Under the pieces are notes generated by a model. The model was given only the letters and a program-made list of their open reading frames with translations. It did not search any database and was not told where the DNA came from. The translations under genes and the position numbers were made by a program. From Escherichia phage LF82-10, in the sequence record PV660453: a stretch of DNA of 52,895 nt, one strand, 5' to 3'. Numbering within the stretch: the stretch's first letter is position 1; every line of letters starts with the position of its first letter. This document shows positions 1-30,810 of this stretch, in pieces.

Positions 1-555
1 ATGTCACATGAAGAAGATAACGAATGGAAAAGCACGAGCGGCGCAGCCAATGAAGCGATCAAGAAAGGGAACTTTAAAGCACTGTATAACAAGAAGTATG
101 GCGACTTGTTTACGGTTTCAAAAAACCATGCTTTCACGCCTGAGCAGCTTTTTGATATGGCTGTTAAATACTTCACCTGGGCGGAAGAGAACGCGCTTAA
201 AGCAGCGGAAACGGCAAGCTTTCAGGGCATTGTGACTGAGAACCTCGTGCATAAGGTGCGCGTATTCACCCTTAACGGACTGTGCCTATTTTGCGGAATC
301 ACAGCCAACGCGATCCACAACTGGCGCAAGCAACCCGGATTTGGTGACGTGGTGGAGTTTATCGACAACGTGATCTATGAGCAGAAATTCCAGCTTGCGG
401 CTAACGGCATCATCAACGCCAGCTTTATTGGCAAGGAGATCGGCATTGATAAAGCGCCGGAAATTAACGTTGCAGCGACGGCGGCGGCTTCTGTTTCAGC
501 GCCAACCACTGAGGAAGTTAAAGACGCGGTGCGTGATATCCTGGGGGAATTATGA
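1..555 (+). CDS. putative terminase small subunit
   Basis: ATG at 1 with SD AAGGAGGG at window end; 184 aa; stop overlaps next start (ATGA 552-555); assigned by position upstream of terminase large subunit only. Confidence 0.4.
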   Translation: MSHEEDNEWKSTSGAANEAIKKGNFKALYNKKYGDLFTVSKNHAFTPEQLFDMAVKYFTWAEENALKAAETASFQGIVTENLVHKVRVFTLNGLCLFCGITANAIHNWRKQPGFGDVVEFIDNVIYEQKFQLAANGIINASFIGKEIGIDKAPEINVAATAAASVSAPTTEEVKDAVRDILGEL

Positions 556-9083: not shown

Positions 9084-9764
9084 ATGGCACTTCCTAACGG
9101 TTCACAGGTCTTCATTGAGCAGACACGATCCATAACCGAAGTTGAAGCAACGAGCATCACCAACTCGAAAGAGCCAGTTGCGACGGTTGCCGATATTGGC
9201 GATCTGGTAAATGGTGATTACGTGCTGGTTCTCGAATCAGTATGGGCAGGTCTGAAAAACCGCGTCCTTCGCGTCAAGTCTATTGATGCGCTGAAGGTAA
9301 CTCTTGAGGGTGACGGCAGCACGGACACGAGCAACATCAACAAGTTCCCGGCTGGCGGCGCATCAACGCTGGTGAAGATCACAAGCTGGATTGAAATCCC
9401 ATGTATCAGCGACATCGCCAAAACTGGTGGCGAACAGCAGTTTTACACCAAGCAGTGTTTAGCTGATGAGCGAGAGAAGCAAACGCCAACCTTCAAGTCT
9501 GCAACGTCGATCGGCTACACGTTCGATTTCGACTACGCAAACCCGATTACTCAACTCCTGATCGGTTACGACGAAGACGGCAAAACCCGCGCGATGCGTA
9601 TGTTCGTTCCAAAGGCGAGCTACCCGATCCGCACCTTCTCTGGCGTGCCATCGTTCGACGATGTGCCAAACACGGTGATGAACGAAGACGAAACAACCGT
9701 CCTCAACATTTCCCTTGATGGCAAGTATACGCACATGAAGGAATATGTTGCACCGACACCATAA
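9084..9764 (+). CDS. major tail protein
   Basis: 226 aa immediately upstream of the chaperone-tape measure block; followed by terminator 9768-9797. Confidence 0.6.
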   Translation: MALPNGSQVFIEQTRSITEVEATSITNSKEPVATVADIGDLVNGDYVLVLESVWAGLKNRVLRVKSIDALKVTLEGDGSTDTSNINKFPAGGASTLVKITSWIEIPCISDIAKTGGEQQFYTKQCLADEREKQTPTFKSATSIGYTFDFDYANPITQLLIGYDEDGKTRAMRMFVPKASYPIRTFSGVPSFDDVPNTVMNEDETTVLNISLDGKYTHMKEYVAPTP

Positions 9765-9767
9765 TCC

Positions 9768-9797
9768 GAAGGGGGGCTATTGCTCCCCTTTTTCTTT
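9768..9797 (+). terminator. intrinsic terminator after major tail gene
   Basis: GGGGGGC-TAT-TGCTCCCC then TTTTTCTTTT. Confidence 0.6.
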
Positions 9798-9840
9798 TGT
9801 GATTTAATACGCGAAACACAACCAATCAGAGGATTTAATT

Positions 9841-10158
9841 ATGTCATTCAAAGTTAAACTGTCCGAGCGCCTCCCTGACTTCCCGCTTGATGTGAAATTC
9901 AACCTTCCGAACGGCACCGAGGCCGAAATTAAATTCACCGTCAAATCACTGAAGGCAAGCGAAGTTCAGGAGCTTTACACCAAGGCTGGCGAGGGCACTG
10001 GCGCTGAGTTCATTACCGCGCTGGCTACCGGGTGGAACCTGGAGGATGAATTTAACGAAGCCAACCAGAACGAGCTGGTAGACAGCTACCCGGCTGTAGT
10101 TCTTGCGCTGGTTTCCGCATACATGGAAGCGCTAGCGGGGTATCGAGCAAAAAACTAA
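9841..10158 (+). CDS. tail assembly chaperone (lambda gpG-like)
   Basis: 105 aa, acidic; ends in slippery heptamer A_AAA_AAC (10149-10155) just before TAA; directly upstream of tape measure. Confidence 0.65.
   Translation: MSFKVKLSERLPDFPLDVKFNLPNGTEAEIKFTVKSLKASEVQELYTKAGEGTGAEFITALATGWNLEDEFNEANQNELVDSYPAVVLALVSAYMEALAGYRAKN
10149..10155 (+). other. -1 programmed ribosomal frameshift slippery heptamer A_AAA_AAC
   Basis: X_XXY_YYZ heptamer in frame of 9841..10158, 1 nt before its TAA; -1 frame is open into 10176..10469. Confidence 0.6.
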
Positions 10159-10175
10159 AAAGGGCAGTCGAGCTA

Positions 10176-10469
10176 ATGTATCGACGAGTGCCCACAGAAG
10201 CAGAGCTTGCCGATTACGGCCTGACAATGGAAGATTACCTAAATGAAGACCCTGAGATCTTAGAGTTTGATTCAGAGCTTTATGCGTCATGGGAAATGTT
10301 TTGCGCGATGCAAACACAGTGGCGATCTTCCGGCGTTGGCGCAATTGGCCTTGATTATAACGTGTTGCCTATGTTGTTCCGAATCTATAAAATAGAAGAC
10401 GAAGAACTAGCCTTAAACGACGTGCGAATCATGGAAGCGGAAGCGCTGAAACGTATGCACAAAAAATAA
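10176..10469 (+). CDS. tail assembly chaperone T-like segment (likely made as G-T fusion by -1 frameshift)
   Basis: ORF in -1 frame relative to 9841..10158; frame is open from slippery site 10152 through 10176. Confidence 0.55.
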   Translation: MYRRVPTEAELADYGLTMEDYLNEDPEILEFDSELYASWEMFCAMQTQWRSSGVGAIGLDYNVLPMLFRIYKIEDEELALNDVRIMEAEALKRMHKK

Positions 10470-10490
10470 GCGCCTTCGGGCGCTTTTCTT
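10468..10490 (+). terminator. terminator/attenuator hairpin before tape measure gene
   Basis: AAGCGCC-TTCG-GGCGCTT then TTCTT. Confidence 0.5.
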
Positions 10491-10503
10491 ATATGGGGGT
10501 TTT

Positions 10504-13203
10504 ATGACCGAACAGTATGCAGGTTTGAGCCTTGAAGTTGACGTGTCGCAGGTTGACAAAGCTGCGGTTTCGCTTGAGAACTTCGCGAAGGCGAATGACA
10601 CGGCTGCGAAGGGTGTTGATAAGTTTATCAACCAGGAGCAGGTTGCACGCCAGAAACAAAAGGAATACGTAGAGGAGATCAAGAAGGGTAACGCCGAGTT
10701 TGCCAGGATCGAGAAGGTCATTGACCCGGCAGTGTCAAAGATCAAGCAATTGCAAACCGCTGGCGCAGATCTCGAAAAGCTATGGCAGAAAGGGCTTGTG
10801 CCTGATGAGCGCTTTTTCCAGTTGGGTGACGTTATCGACACTCAGATCGGGGCGCTGAAGAAGTCACAGCAAGCACTGACTGAGGAAGGCCGCGCAGCAC
10901 TGGAAAACGCGAAGGCGAAAGCACAGGCGCAACGTGACGGCGATCGCTTCATCAAGCAGTTGCAGGAGCAAGCCAACGCCGCAACCATGACCAAGACCGA
11001 GATCTTAGAAATGAAGGCCGCGCAGTTGGGCGTTACGGCACAGGCCGCGCCACTGATCGCAGCCATGAACAAGCAGACTAGCGCCATCAATCTTGCTGGC
11101 ATTTCGGCTGGGCAGTACAACCAGGCAATGCGAATGCTTCCGGCGCAGATCACGGACGTTGTGACTTCATTAGCATCAGGGATGCCTGTTTGGCTTGTTG
11201 CCATCCAGCAGGGCGGCCAGATCAAGGACAGCTTCGGCGGAATCGGTAACACGTTCAAAGTGTTGTTGTCTTACCTCAATCCGCTTAATGTTGGCATTGG
11301 CCTGACGGTTGGCGCGCTGGGCGCTCTCATCTTCCAGGTTGTGAAGGCTCGCGGAGAGATTACGGCAGCGCAGAAAGCCGTTGCAGAGTCATTGGGCATG
11401 ACTGGTGATTACGCCGATAAGCTGGCGTTAAACCTTCGCAACATTGCTGACGCTTCAAAGCAGACAGCAGAGGAGGCGGCTAAGGCTTTCATTTCCACGA
11501 AAGATAAAGCGGCAGAGGCACAGGCCAAACTGATTGATGTTGGTTTCAGCTACGACGAAGCGCGCCAGATGGTTGAGAAGTACAAAGGATCGTCTGATTT
11601 CACTTTCCTTAACACGGAGATTGAGCGCCATCGCCTTGAGGTGCTGGGCATTAAAGATGCGTGGAGTGATGCGGCTGAGGAAGTCAAGAACTACTACACC
11701 GGGGCGAAGGAAGGCAAGCAAAGCGTAGCGCTGGGCGGCGCGATTGACCCTATCATCAAGATCATCGAGCGTGCCAAAAATCTCCAGGTTGAGACTAACA
11801 AGGCGCGAATCGAAGGTAACAAGATCGTAAATGATACCGTCAACCTCGTTGAAAAAGAGTACCTTGCAAGCAACCGCGTTGCTGCGGCTAAGAAGGCTCT
11901 TACTGAGGCCGAGAAGTACGCGAAAACAATCGCGGCATCCGGCAACGCTGAGGCGATCAAGCAGTCGAAAGAGCTGATTGAGATTCGCAAGAAGGAGATC
12001 AAGCAAGCTGAGGAGGCTGAAGCGAAGAAGAACAAGCCTAAGAAAGTTTCACAGGGCGCAATTGTTCGATCGCCTGAAGAGCAGCTTGACAAAGAGCTTT
12101 ACACGCTCAAAGCTCAGTTGAAGGTGTTGCAGGAGCATCAAAACATCGGTGAGCGCATTTCAAGCCAGCGTAAATCATTGTGGAGCGTTGAGGCTCAGAT
12201 CTCAATCCTTCAGGAAGCGCAGAGTAAGCGCCGATTGTCGAATGAGGAAAAGGCGTTGCTGACGAGCCAGCAAAAGGTGCTGGCGATGGCTCAGGAGAAA
12301 GCGGAGTTAGGCGATCAGATTTTGGCTCAAGAGAAGTTAAACGCTCTTAATGACAAATCGCTTGCCTTTGTGATCCAAATGAACCAGTCAGCACAAGCCC
12401 TCAACGAAACACGCGCCATGGGCAACCGTGAGGCAGAGCGTGCGGCGGCGAAGGCTAAGATCACCTCTGATTACATGGCGCAGGGTGGCGGCAAGGATGA
12501 TGCAGCGTTGCAGAAGATGATCAAAGCACAGGACGACTACTACGCGGCTGAAGATGCGAAGCGTGCAGACTGGTTAGCCGGGGCGAAAAACGCCTTTGCC
12601 AACTACGGTGACGCGGCAACGGATATGTACTCCAACGTTGGGCAGATTGCCAGCAGCGCGCTTAACGGAATGTCAGATATGATGGCGGAGTTTCTCATGA
12701 CGGGCAAAGCCAACTTTGAGGACTTCGCGAAGAGCATCATCAGCCAGATCATTAAGATGATCACACAGATGGTAATCTTTAACAGCATTTCCGGCATGAT
12801 GGGCGGCGGCGGTTGGTCATTCGCTGGTGCTGGTTTCTCTGGTGGTGGCTACACTGGCGACGGCGGGAAGTATCAGCCAGCCGGAACGGTTCACCGTGGC
12901 GAGTTTGTCATGACCAAGGAAGCAACAAAGAGGATTGGCGTTGACAACCTGTATCGACTGATGCGAGGCTATGCTAACGGCGGTTATGTTGGCGGCTCAT
13001 CTTCCGGCACTGGTGCTGGCGGTAGCTTCGGCGGCGGATTCTCTCTGACGATTGGCAGCATCCCGGTTGACGTGAACAACGGAGGCGATCCGAAAGGCAT
13101 GGAGCAGGGAATTAAGGCAATCTTCCAGCAGATGATTCAGGAGTCATGCGCGCAGGGAGGAGAGGTTTACAACTTCATTCAACAGAAAACAGGAGCGGGT
13201 TAA
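10504..13203 (+). CDS. tail tape measure protein
   Basis: 899 aa, Ala/Gln/Lys-rich coiled-coil-like N-terminal two-thirds, Gly-rich C-terminal part; position. Confidence 0.85.
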   Translation: MTEQYAGLSLEVDVSQVDKAAVSLENFAKANDTAAKGVDKFINQEQVARQKQKEYVEEIKKGNAEFARIEKVIDPAVSKIKQLQTAGADLEKLWQKGLVPDERFFQLGDVIDTQIGALKKSQQALTEEGRAALENAKAKAQAQRDGDRFIKQLQEQANAATMTKTEILEMKAAQLGVTAQAAPLIAAMNKQTSAINLAGISAGQYNQAMRMLPAQITDVVTSLASGMPVWLVAIQQGGQIKDSFGGIGNTFKVLLSYLNPLNVGIGLTVGALGALIFQVVKARGEITAAQKAVAESLGMTGDYADKLALNLRNIADASKQTAEEAAKAFISTKDKAAEAQAKLIDVGFSYDEARQMVEKYKGSSDFTFLNTEIERHRLEVLGIKDAWSDAAEEVKNYYTGAKEGKQSVALGGAIDPIIKIIERAKNLQVETNKARIEGNKIVNDTVNLVEKEYLASNRVAAAKKALTEAEKYAKTIAASGNAEAIKQSKELIEIRKKEIKQAEEAEAKKNKPKKVSQGAIVRSPEEQLDKELYTLKAQLKVLQEHQNIGERISSQRKSLWSVEAQISILQEAQSKRRLSNEEKALLTSQQKVLAMAQEKAELGDQILAQEKLNALNDKSLAFVIQMNQSAQALNETRAMGNREAERAAAKAKITSDYMAQGGGKDDAALQKMIKAQDDYYAAEDAKRADWLAGAKNAFANYGDAATDMYSNVGQIASSALNGMSDMMAEFLMTGKANFEDFAKSIISQIIKMITQMVIFNSISGMMGGGGWSFAGAGFSGGGYTGDGGKYQPAGTVHRGEFVMTKEATKRIGVDNLYRLMRGYANGGYVGGSSSGTGAGGSFGGGFSLTIGSIPVDVNNGGDPKGMEQGIKAIFQQMIQESCAQGGEVYNFIQQKTGAG

Positions 13204-27540: not shown

Positions 27541-29610
27541 ATGAAAATCAAGAGCATCAAGAAGCAGATTGAGGAGTTAGGCGAGGATAAGATCGCAGAG
27601 CTTCAAAAGAAATTCACTTTTGGTGACATTGTTCCTTATGCGTATCAGTGCGTCATGTACGACGAGATCGCAAAGCGCATTTCCGCATACAAACACCCAT
27701 TCTTTGTTAAGGCTTCCGTGTCGGCTGGCAAAACAGTTGGGTTTGCCATGGTGGCGGCGCGGTGCAGGGAAATGACTAGCGCAAAGTTTCCAAAGGGTTT
27801 ATCAATGGCAATCCTCGCTCGCCAGGGTGAGATCGTATCTCAGGATAGCCAGGAGCTAACAAACTTCGGCGTGCCGAATAGCGTTTACTGCGCCGGGCTT
27901 GGTACTAAATCTGCATACTTCCCGATCGTCGTTGGCTCTGAGGGTTCAGTTGCAAACGGGCTTTTCAAGGCTCTCGGAGACTTCGCGCCAATGGTTGTCG
28001 GCATCGACGAATGTCACCAGGTGGATTGGGAAGACCTTGCAGACTCGATCGAGAAGAACGAAAGCTATGAGGAAATGAGCAGACCAAAGGATGAGGCTTA
28101 CATGATCAATGGCGAAGTAGTCGATCGCGGGTTGAAGATATCAAGCCTCATGGAAACCCTGGGAACAGTTGCACCAGGTGCCGGGCGCTCTCAGTACACG
28201 ATAATCATTCGTGAGTTGCAGCGTCGATGCCTGGAAGTTCACGGAAAGGAACTACGCATATTCGGCATGACTGGTTCAGAGTTTCGCGGCACAACTCCGA
28301 TCCTTGTTGAGAATATGAAACTCAAAGGCTTCTGGCGCGAGCAGGTAACGAACATTGATACGAACTACCTCATTGAGTTTGGCTCGGTTGTTCCAACCGT
28401 CTTCGGCTCAACTGGCGGGTTAGGCTACGATCTGGAAGAGTTCAAAGCGTCAAGCGAAGATGGAACAAAAGACTTTGACGCGAAAGTAATGAAGAAGATG
28501 GAGGAGAAGATCCACAAGGATGCTTCCATGACGGCAAGAATTATGGCGGCGGTTGTGGAGGAAGCGAAGAAGCGAAACGGCGTTCTAATTACTTGCTCAG
28601 GGCAACGACACTGTAAAGAGGCGGCTAGTTACCTGCCTGAAGGCTCAACGTATGCGATCATTACTGAGAAGACCGGAACGAAACAGCGCCAGCAAATCCT
28701 TGATGATGCAAACCAGGGAAAGATAAAGTACATCTTCCAGGTTGTGGCATTGACGACTGGCGTTAACGTGCCGTTTTGGGATTTCTCCGTGATACTCCGT
28801 AAGATTGGCTCTCTCACATTGCTGATACAGTTGCTTGGGCGCGGAATGCGACTTTTAAAGGCGTGGCAAATCGCAATGGGGATGGTGAAGACAGATCACC
28901 TTGTTTGGGATTTTGCCGGAACTATGGACGAATTAGGCCAACTTTACTTTGACCCGATTCTTGAGGAAGCTCAGTATCAACGCCGTTTCGACTCGAAGAA
29001 GGAGCCTAAAAAATGCCCTATTTGCGGTCATGAAAACAGTTTCTTTGCTCGTCGCTGTATCAGTCGGGATTTGAACGGAAACAGATGTGAGTATTTCTGG
29101 AAGTCGAGAACGTGCGAGGATCAGGTTGACGATCGAACCGGGAAAGTTATTGTGAAGGGTTGCGGTGTTCAAAATGATGTTGTAGCTCGAATCTGTAGGG
29201 GTTGTGATGCTAGCCTAACAGATCCCAACGCCAACTTAACCGGGAAGGCGTACACAAAAAACGACTGGTGCCAGGTTCTCAGCTTTGAGGTTGGGCTTAC
29301 CAAAAACCAGACCGGGATCATTTATAAATATCGCTTGCGTGATATGCTCGGAGAGGAGTTTAACGCATACGAGAAGTTTTTCCCTGAGTCTCAGGCTCAG
29401 GTATGCCACACGATATGGAAAACAAAAGGCGTGCTTCCACACGTTCACGATTCGAAAGTGGCAAAGCTTATGGCAGCATACAGGAGCGCGCGCCTGATCT
29501 TACAAAACGCGCACCACATCGCGCACCCGGTACGGGTTACGCATCGCAAAAACGCAAAGGGCGAAGATATCATTTCGCGCAAGGACTTCGGTCTTAATGA
29601 GGGCTTATGA
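27541..29610 (+). CDS. ATP-dependent DNA helicase (SF2, DExH)
   Basis: 689 aa; Walker A SVSAGKTVG, DECH box (GIDECHQV); C-terminal Cys-rich zinc-finger-like cluster. Confidence 0.8.
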   Translation: MKIKSIKKQIEELGEDKIAELQKKFTFGDIVPYAYQCVMYDEIAKRISAYKHPFFVKASVSAGKTVGFAMVAARCREMTSAKFPKGLSMAILARQGEIVSQDSQELTNFGVPNSVYCAGLGTKSAYFPIVVGSEGSVANGLFKALGDFAPMVVGIDECHQVDWEDLADSIEKNESYEEMSRPKDEAYMINGEVVDRGLKISSLMETLGTVAPGAGRSQYTIIIRELQRRCLEVHGKELRIFGMTGSEFRGTTPILVENMKLKGFWREQVTNIDTNYLIEFGSVVPTVFGSTGGLGYDLEEFKASSEDGTKDFDAKVMKKMEEKIHKDASMTARIMAAVVEEAKKRNGVLITCSGQRHCKEAASYLPEGSTYAIITEKTGTKQRQQILDDANQGKIKYIFQVVALTTGVNVPFWDFSVILRKIGSLTLLIQLLGRGMRLLKAWQIAMGMVKTDHLVWDFAGTMDELGQLYFDPILEEAQYQRRFDSKKEPKKCPICGHENSFFARRCISRDLNGNRCEYFWKSRTCEDQVDDRTGKVIVKGCGVQNDVVARICRGCDASLTDPNANLTGKAYTKNDWCQVLSFEVGLTKNQTGIIYKYRLRDMLGEEFNAYEKFFPESQAQVCHTIWKTKGVLPHVHDSKVAKLMAAYRSARLILQNAHHIAHPVRVTHRKNAKGEDIISRKDFGLNEGL

Positions 29611-30096: not shown

Positions 30097-30810
30097 ATGA
30101 TTGACGAGAACGATAAAGACACAATGACGTTTGAAGAAATGGAGCACGGCTTGTATTCAACTCGCGCACTGGTTGCCGGGTGCCACTACCAGCCAGTGAA
30201 GCCGGAAACGTACTATCGCGTTTCAGGGCATCGTTACGTTGGCAGCAAAACGCCTGACGTTGTGCGTGACTTGTGGGCAACCGATCGCGAATTGATTTCG
30301 TGGATGGAAGAGCGTTACGGAAAGTATGATATCGACGCAGCGGCAAGCGCGAATAATGCCGTGTGCGAAAAGTTCTACGACGAGCAACGTAACTGCCTGA
30401 AAATCTGGTGGGGAAAGAATAAGCACATCTGGCTTAACCCTCCGTACTCACATCCTGATCCATTCGTGAAGAAGGCCATTGAGCAGATGGAGCATGACAA
30501 CCAGATTGATATGCTTCTTCCTGGCGACAACTCAACGGCATGGTTTGCAGAGGCGCGCAAAAACGCTGCTGAGATCATCTGGATTGAGGCTGAGATCACA
30601 GAGATTGACCAGCAGGAATATTGCCGAACCGGGCGACTCGCTTTTATTTCCGGCCTAACCGGAAAGCCAGTTGACGGCAACAACAAAGGGAGTGTGATTT
30701 TCATCATGCGCAAACTGAAAGAGGGTGAGACGCAACAAACACACTATGTGAGCGTTTCTGAGATCTGCCCAGGCGTAAGCCGCAAGAAACCACGTAAACG
30801 GAGCGTTTAA
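30097..30810 (+). CDS. dam: DNA N6-adenine methyltransferase (phage Dam-type)
   Basis: 237 aa; catalytic NPPY motif (WLNPPYSHP). Confidence 0.8.
   Translation: MIDENDKDTMTFEEMEHGLYSTRALVAGCHYQPVKPETYYRVSGHRYVGSKTPDVVRDLWATDRELISWMEERYGKYDIDAAASANNAVCEKFYDEQRNCLKIWWGKNKHIWLNPPYSHPDPFVKKAIEQMEHDNQIDMLLPGDNSTAWFAEARKNAAEIIWIEAEITEIDQQEYCRTGRLAFISGLTGKPVDGNNKGSVIFIMRKLKEGETQQTHYVSVSEICPGVSRKKPRKRSV

Follow-up and report, generated by a model that had tools for sequence, protein, structure and literature searches.

The two small open reading frames (ORFs) that lie between the tail tube and tape measure genes of Escherichia phage LF82-10 very probably give rise to a fusion of both frames, made by −1 ribosomal frameshifting at the heptamer A_AAA_AAC. 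We infer that the slip takes place on the ribosome. A minority of ribosomes would slip back one base on the heptamer, just before the TAA codon, and would continue in the −1 frame to 10469. Two products would be expected, namely a "G-like" chaperone of 105 aa and 11.6 kDa and a "GT-like" fusion of 209 aa and about 23 kDa (9841..10155 + 10155..10469), which has a DUF1799 domain at its C-terminus. The window denotes here the whole stretch of DNA that was analysed, 52,895 nucleotides in length (sequence record PV660453), and G and T denote the upstream ORF and the segment read in the −1 frame, respectively (Table 1). A preliminary description of this DNA had proposed a G/GT-type −1 programmed frameshift at the junction of the two ORFs, and the genomic comparisons support that proposal, as the hallmarks are all present and appear to be conserved across T1-like phages. 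Sites of this kind are known and conserved; the present one is missing from the public annotation of the phage and looks real but ordinary.

Table 1. Coordinates of the tail chaperone junction of LF82-10 and of its neighbouring genes.
Feature	Position	Strand	Basis or remark
Major tail (tube) protein gene, upstream neighbour	9084..9764	+	Pfam Phage_tail_3, E 1.6e-47
Upstream chaperone ORF ("G" analogue), normal termination product, 105 aa	9841..10158	+	ORF list, Pfam, PHROG, AF2 model
Slippery heptamer A_AAA_AAC (GCA AAA AAC); core A_AAR read by tRNA-Lys	10149..10155	+	Sequence
Stop codon TAA of the upstream ORF	10156..10158	+	Abuts the heptamer
−1 frame segment ("T" analogue), read after the shift	10155..10469	+	Translation, Pfam, PHROG
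Candidate frameshift stimulator, predicted RNA hairpin	10162..10193	+	Fold prediction
ATG, start of a separate CDS in GenBank	10176..10178	+	Most likely an internal Met
Tape measure protein gene, downstream neighbour	10504..13203	+	Pfam TMP_2, E 1e-34; Tape_meas_lam_C, E 3.8e-25

The chaperone region of LF82-10

The upstream ORF ends in the codons CGA GCA AAA AAC TAA, and the heptamer stands in the zero frame of ATG 9841 in the X_XXY_YYZ phase, with the stop codon directly 3′ of it. The earlier placement of the heptamer immediately before this stop is exact to the base. The junction reads ...TAT CGA GCA AAA AAC TAA AAA GGG CAG TCG AGC TAA TGT..., and the second entry of the ORF list (10176..10469, 97 aa) uses the −1 frame when the first is taken as zero. 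Translated from 10149, the −1 frame gives KKLKRAVELMYRR...HKK, written also as KKLKRAVELMYRRVPTEAEL...HKK, and contains no stop before 10467. Translation thereby bears out the earlier statement that this frame is open from the slip site into the downstream ORF; the open stretch begins no later than 100 nt before the G stop and extends to 10469. No ATG, GTG, or TTG occurs in this stretch before 10176. In-frame heptamers are also found elsewhere in the window, at 29256 (AAAAAAC) and 28716 (GGGAAAG), both in the ORF 27541..29610, at 30411 (GGGAAAG) in the ORF 30097..30810, and at 120 (AAAAAAC) in the ORF 1..555; some heptamers of the window are of the G_GGA_AAG and A_AAA_AAG types that are shifty in E. 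coli.

The gene order of the region is Phage_tail_3, Phage_TAC_4, DUF1799, and tape measure. Two small ORFs thus lie between the tube and tape measure genes, as in the G/GT class (Xu, Hendrix & Duda 2004). Two further features of that class are present, namely a −1 frame that runs on without a stop past the end of the first ORF, in the window and in 58/58 junctions of relatives, and an in-phase slippery sequence in the overlap that is conserved in the relatives. The upstream ORF matches Pfam Phage_TAC_4 (PF08748) over its full length (E 1.9e-28, 99.6 bits against a cut-off of 21.1), and the downstream ORF matches DUF1799 (PF08809; E 7.8e-13, 48.9 bits against a cut-off of 26). The upstream ORF also matches PHROG 569 and PHROG 17368, the latter being a fused G+T family of 213 positions on which G aligns at 4-107 and T at 117-211. 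The pair belongs to the T1-like tape measure chaperone family, given that both Pfam cut-offs are exceeded and that the two ORFs are colinear with PHROG 17368.

An AF2 model of G (pLDDT 76) matches predicted structures labelled "tape measure chaperone" in BFVD, with E values from 1.7e-9, and among these model-to-model matches are fused forms of 210-268 aa. A comparison of the same model with the PDB gave nothing significant, the HK97 chaperone 2OB9 appearing at E 2.6 and TMq 0.35, and a PDB sequence search with the G profile and the T segment gave nothing meaningful. A homologue search with the fused 209-aa query returned only three T-like proteins with N-terminal extensions and is uninformative on natural fusions. 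Terminator-like GC hairpins followed by T tracts bracket the chaperone pair, one after the major tail gene (9768-9791, plus strand) and the other where the T ORF gives way to the tape measure gene (10468-10485, both strands); a rho-independent terminator is annotated in the T1 record at the equivalent place after the T ORF. These hairpins might set the transcript ratio of the tube, chaperone, and tape measure genes.

Between 9000 and 10600, the window is 100% identical to Escherichia phages LF82-11, LF82-12, LF82-19, and LF82-40, and 73-78% identical to TH27 (Nouzillyvirus) and NBD2 (Vilniusvirus), both of which are Drexlerviridae, that is, T1-like siphophages. The GenBank record of LF82-11 gives the two small ORFs as separate CDS, both named "tail length tape measure protein", and the same name is attached to both chaperone ORFs in GenBank PV660454 and RefSeq NC_031050, with no ribosomal-slippage join. 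This name, a mislabel of both chaperone CDS, is inherited from PHROG family names.

Conservation of the junction in T1-like relatives

The relatives comprised 80 IMG/VR loci encoding G homologues of 44-66% amino-acid identity, together with T1, U136B, NBD2, IMGroot, TH27, TH21, and three metagenomic relatives (68-76% identity). These gave 58 distinct junction sequences, which fall into 19 lineages (<85% nucleotide identity). A T-like ORF is in the −1 frame in all 58 junctions, the exceptions being four loci with A5 in place of A6. The G stop abuts the slip site in every junction and is TAA in 56 and TGA in 2. The slip site is AAAAAAC in 43 of the 58 junctions, A_AAA_GUY/GCC in 10 (Webervirus-like), and A_AAG_GUC in 5 (Rtp-like), and the core A_AAR is common to 58/58, with AAA or AAG as the Lys codon throughout. 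In one further relative (L093), the site is A_AAA_AAA and G ends in Lys-Lys instead of Lys-Asn; this predicted slip site differs only at the Z position, which the slip rule permits. TGA rather than TAA was also noted as the adjacent stop in individual loci (L016, L018, and L091).

Two features of these alignments bear on what is under selection. The codon before Lys specifies Val, Ala, or Thr, all of which are four-fold degenerate, and its third base is A in 19/19 lineages, as compared with 2-8 of the 19 at four neighbouring four-fold sites that served as a control; selection therefore acts here on the nucleotide and not on the protein. In the −1 frame, the peptide L-K-R-A-V-Y/E-L is conserved from the stop codon on across the 58 junctions with free variation at third positions, where Arg is encoded by CGG/AGG/CGC, Ala by GCG/GCT/GCA/GCC, Val by GTT/GTC/GTA/GTG, and Leu by CTG/CTA/CTC/CTT/TTA. 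Synonymous change of this kind marks a sequence as translated, and the peptide concerned precedes every possible start. Between the upstream stop of the T frame and +60 nt past the G stop, no ATG, GTG, or TTG is present in 26 of the 58 junctions. A Shine–Dalgarno (SD) core of at least 4 nt within 4-12 nt of a candidate T start was likewise sought in all 58 and found only for a TTG at +50 in one locus (L069). Taken together, the frame, the stop, the slip-site bases, the peptide, and the start codons leave a −1 shift at the Lys codon as the only simple reading.

The Webervirus-like loci (L006, L068-L087) have GCA AAA GUY UAA and the Rtp-like loci (L035-L040) have GCA AAG GUC UAA, and both groups keep the −1 arrangement and the adjacent stop although the tandem heptamer is missing. 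This implies slippage of a single tRNA-Lys on A_AAR. The four loci with A5 (GTAAAAAC) instead of A6 at the slip site are L007 (Salmonella phage 36), L025, L043, and L083, in which T is in the +1 frame and G is longer by about 17-19 codons. For L007 and L083, the A5 run is probably a homopolymer sequencing error, because other indels lie nearby.

A candidate stimulator is predicted downstream of the heptamer. RNAfold places a hairpin that starts 6 nt after the heptamer, with an MFE of −15.1 kcal/mol for 10156-10203. Its outer stem GGGCA/UGCCC runs from G10162-C10193 to A10166-U10189 and is followed by a 3-nt bulge and an inner stem GUCGA/UCGAC (G10167-C10185 to A10171-U10181, plus two more pairs), closed by the loop UAAU, and the AUG at 10176 lies in and next to this loop. 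When the window was recoded synonymously with the −1 frame protein kept, 3.7% of the recodings folded as well (z −1.7), a moderate signal. The same test gave a strong signal in T1/Tls-like lineages (z −2.6 to −4.8) and none in the Rtp-like, L055, L082, and L085 lineages. The pair equivalent to A10166-U10189 is G-C in TH27, TH21, T1, L093, and L094 and U-A in L091, so that compensatory pairs and some covariation are seen. In a gapless alignment of 33 sequences, 73% of cells pair, against 67% in shuffles (0/500 of which reached this value) and 38-54% in slid controls. These comparisons support a lineage-variable stem-loop, and its stimulatory role is a conjecture. A universal downstream hairpin was rejected, as the hairpin is absent in several lineages.

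An Rfam scan of 9700-10600 found no frameshift-element family and gave only a sub-threshold ctRNA match on the terminator hairpin. Upstream of the heptamer, by 8 nt, is a GGGG run (10137-10140) that recalls the upstream SD-like stimulator of dnaX and that forms part of the sequence as the Ala-Gly codon pair of a conserved ALAG motif. GCGGGG was considered as an SD-like stimulator and dropped, since the Gly codon varies freely among relatives (GGC/GGG/GGT/GGA); on this comparison, the GGGG run is probably not a conserved element.

Proposed origin of the fusion and the ATG at 10176

In the proposed mechanism, the core step would be the re-pairing of the tRNA-Lys on AAA 10150-10152 with the overlapping AAA 10149-10151. 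In this phage, the tRNA-Asn on AAC may move to AAA at the same time. Such a tandem slip, which retains Asn, would give the Glu-C junction peptide ALAGYRAKNLKRAVE, and slippage of Lys in the P site only would give ALAGYRAKKLKRAVE (...AKKLKRAVE). The adjacent stop codon and the hairpin would be expected to raise the efficiency of the shift. A stop codon in the next position would slow A-site decoding, and a hairpin at the typical spacing of 6 nt would favour the shift. The efficiency is presumably low and, like that of lambda, in the range of a few per cent. According to a review, ribosomes of E. coli shift far less readily on A_AAA_AAC than on A_AAA_AAG, a point that weighs against the frameshift, and A_AAG is prone to shifting in its own right; the former fits a low fusion yield such as the G:GT ratio of about 30:1 in lambda, and the latter fits the A_AAG variant of the Rtp-like lineage. 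By analogy with lambda, the G part would bind the tape measure protein and the T part would recruit the tail tube protein. No experimental demonstration of a GT fusion in any T1-like phage was found in the searchable literature, and the database annotations are predictions.

Judged from LF82-10 as a single sequence, the site goes only weakly beyond chance and is only suggestive. AAAAAAC occurs 9 times in the window as against 14 expected from shuffles; it is not enriched, and the string alone is therefore without weight. The ORFs of at least 100 aa on both strands contain 30 canonical in-frame heptamers. For in-frame X_XXY_YYZ heptamers, the rate in the window's long ORFs is 0.0016 per codon, and the expectation for the 33-codon overlap is about 0.05, with far fewer directly against the stop. 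The number of such heptamers and the lack of enrichment would suit a heptamer that arose by chance, with an A-rich string that merely encodes the C-terminal Lys-Asn of G and has no role in recoding. Such a reading is nevertheless scarcely credible, as it leaves unexplained the invariant A at the preceding four-fold site in 19/19 lineages, the fact that the −1 frame is conserved like coding sequence on both sides of the stop, and the missing T start codons in relatives. It is the conservation of position, frame, and slip-site bases in the relatives that takes the site beyond chance. A fusion could also arise by transcriptional slippage, in which RNA polymerase would lengthen the A6 run by one A and both ORFs would be read from such mRNAs without a change of frame. 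In favour of this are the homopolymeric nature of the site, with its six A, and the four public relatives with A5, which point to instability of run length, at least in sequencing. Efficient transcriptional slippage in bacteria, however, needs runs of about 8-9 or more, longer than the A6 run, and in sister lineages the same −1 relation is retained over no more than A4 (GCA AAA GUU) or A3 (GCA AAG GUC). At these A4 and A3 sites, slippage of the polymerase is implausible whereas slippage of tRNA-Lys on A_AAR is not, and we regard a transcriptional origin as highly improbable.

The remaining alternatives concern the ATG at 10176, which the preliminary description had treated as the start of the second ORF. 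It lies 17 nt after the G stop, and the only SD-like bases, AAGG, are 12 nt upstream and inside the hairpin stem. Met is found at this position only in this phage, NBD2, L091, and L093. The closest relatives, TH27 and TH21, have Leu, as does L094, and in T1 and most lineages the residue is Leu, Tyr, Phe, Gln, or Thr. The seven codons before Met are CTA AAA AGG GCA GTC GAG CTA in the window, CTG AAA AAG GCT GTC GAG TTG in L091, ATA AAG CGG GCG GTC GAG CTG in L093, and CTA AAG CGG GCT GTA ACG CTG in NBD2; the Met-bearing group thus keeps L/I-K-R/K-A-V-E/T-L ahead of Met through synonymous changes. Because the residue varies, the upstream peptide is kept, and the SD-like AAGG is in a stem, the ATG is most likely a lineage-specific internal Met of the fusion and probably not a start, although a 97-aa T protein may arise from it to a minor extent by independent or coupled initiation in this phage and the few relatives with Met. 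If the two ORFs were instead separate genes, the second would be translated from ATG 10176 by a weak SD sequence or by re-initiation after TAA, and the heptamer would be irrelevant. The position of the ATG and of AAGG, the Met common to NBD2, L091, and L093, and the two CDS annotated in the LF82-11 record are all in keeping with separate genes. Against them are the Leu in the closest relatives and in L094, the 26 family junctions that have no start codon in the T frame, and the burial of both the SD-like bases and the AUG in the predicted hairpin. Moreover, a conserved peptide ahead of the ATG makes no sense for an untranslated spacer, and the slip-site bases stay conserved. Two separate genes are therefore distinctly unlikely. 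It is also unlikely that the ATG is a second start used beside the frameshift, which would yield G, GT, and free T in this sub-lineage, with a single tRNA-Lys shift as the slip element of the family. Were it so, the hairpin would both stimulate slippage and throttle initiation, and A_AAR next to the stop, rather than the full tandem heptamer, would be the essential slip element of the family. LF82-11, NBD2, and two metagenomic relatives make up the sub-lineage with Met in the hairpin loop.

Relation to known systems and implications

The predicted fusion by −1 frameshifting is best compared with phage T1 (GenBank AY216660, CPTT1_038/039), whose proteins are homologous to those of LF82-10 (53% identity for G and 60% for T). 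T1 shares GCA AAA AAC TAA AAA GGG C exactly (GCAAAAAACTAAAAAGGGC), with the same −1 relation of the two ORFs. In both phages, the tail tube gene precedes the site and the tape measure gene follows it, and the 5′ arm of the hairpin is at the same place. T1 differs in having no ATG after the junction, where the window has one at +20, and in its hairpin, of which the inner part is different and one outer pair is G-C in T1 and A-U in the window. In the records of T1 and U136B, the homologous joined CDS is named "tape measure chaperone, frameshift product", the T1 annotation being a prediction, and the conserved frameshift is also reported for Stevie and Skenny, two T1-like phages, in the papers that describe their genomes.

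In lambda, the G and G-T proteins are produced by a −1 frameshift at G_GGA_AAG (Levin 1993; Xu, Hendrix & Duda 2004, 2013), and the chaperones are absent from virions (review). The arrangement of a tube gene, two small ORFs, and a tape measure gene is the same as in the window, for which two products with a common N-terminus are likewise predicted, the second ORF being entered through a −1 shift shortly before the first one stops. The lambda heptamer differs from A_AAA_AAC, and the stop of the window directly follows the heptamer whereas the annotated G and T CDS in the lambda record overlap by 19 nt. The proteins differ as well, lambda G and T being PF06894 (Phage_TAC_2) and PF06223 (Phage_tail_T) and the window ORFs matching PF08748 and PF08809 only. 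An hhalign comparison of the G alignment with lambda G gave a probability of 0.06%, that is, no detectable sequence similarity. The earlier designation of the site as "lambda-type" is accordingly apt for the mechanism and the gene position but not for the proteins, which are Phage_TAC_4 and DUF1799 and not Phage_TAC_2 and Phage_tail_T. As judged by these sequence comparisons, the site belongs to the general G/GT frameshift class and not to the protein families of lambda.

Tail chaperone frameshifts at AAAAAAC have been predicted for gp12/13 of Acinetobacter phage Loki and for the haloarchaeal virus HCTV-2. In Loki, also a prediction, AAAAAAC is followed at once by the stop of the first chaperone ORF, as it is in the window; Loki and HCTV-2 differ in being unrelated phages with unrelated hosts. 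The frameshift in dnaX of E. coli (A_AAA_AAG) has in common with the model for the window a tRNA-Lys slip on an A-run and a stem-loop a few nt downstream. It differs in its A-site codon, which is AAG as compared with AAC (Asn) in the window, in its biological purpose, and in having an upstream SD-like stimulator, of which the window has no conserved counterpart.

The main value of the finding lies in correct annotation, as the records of this phage and of its sister isolates list two separate CDS. The predicted 209-aa fusion, probably indispensable if tails are to reach their correct length, is lost from an annotation of this kind. Where T1-like therapeutic phages are engineered or recoded, the heptamer, the position of the stop codon, and probably the hairpin up to 10193 should be left intact.
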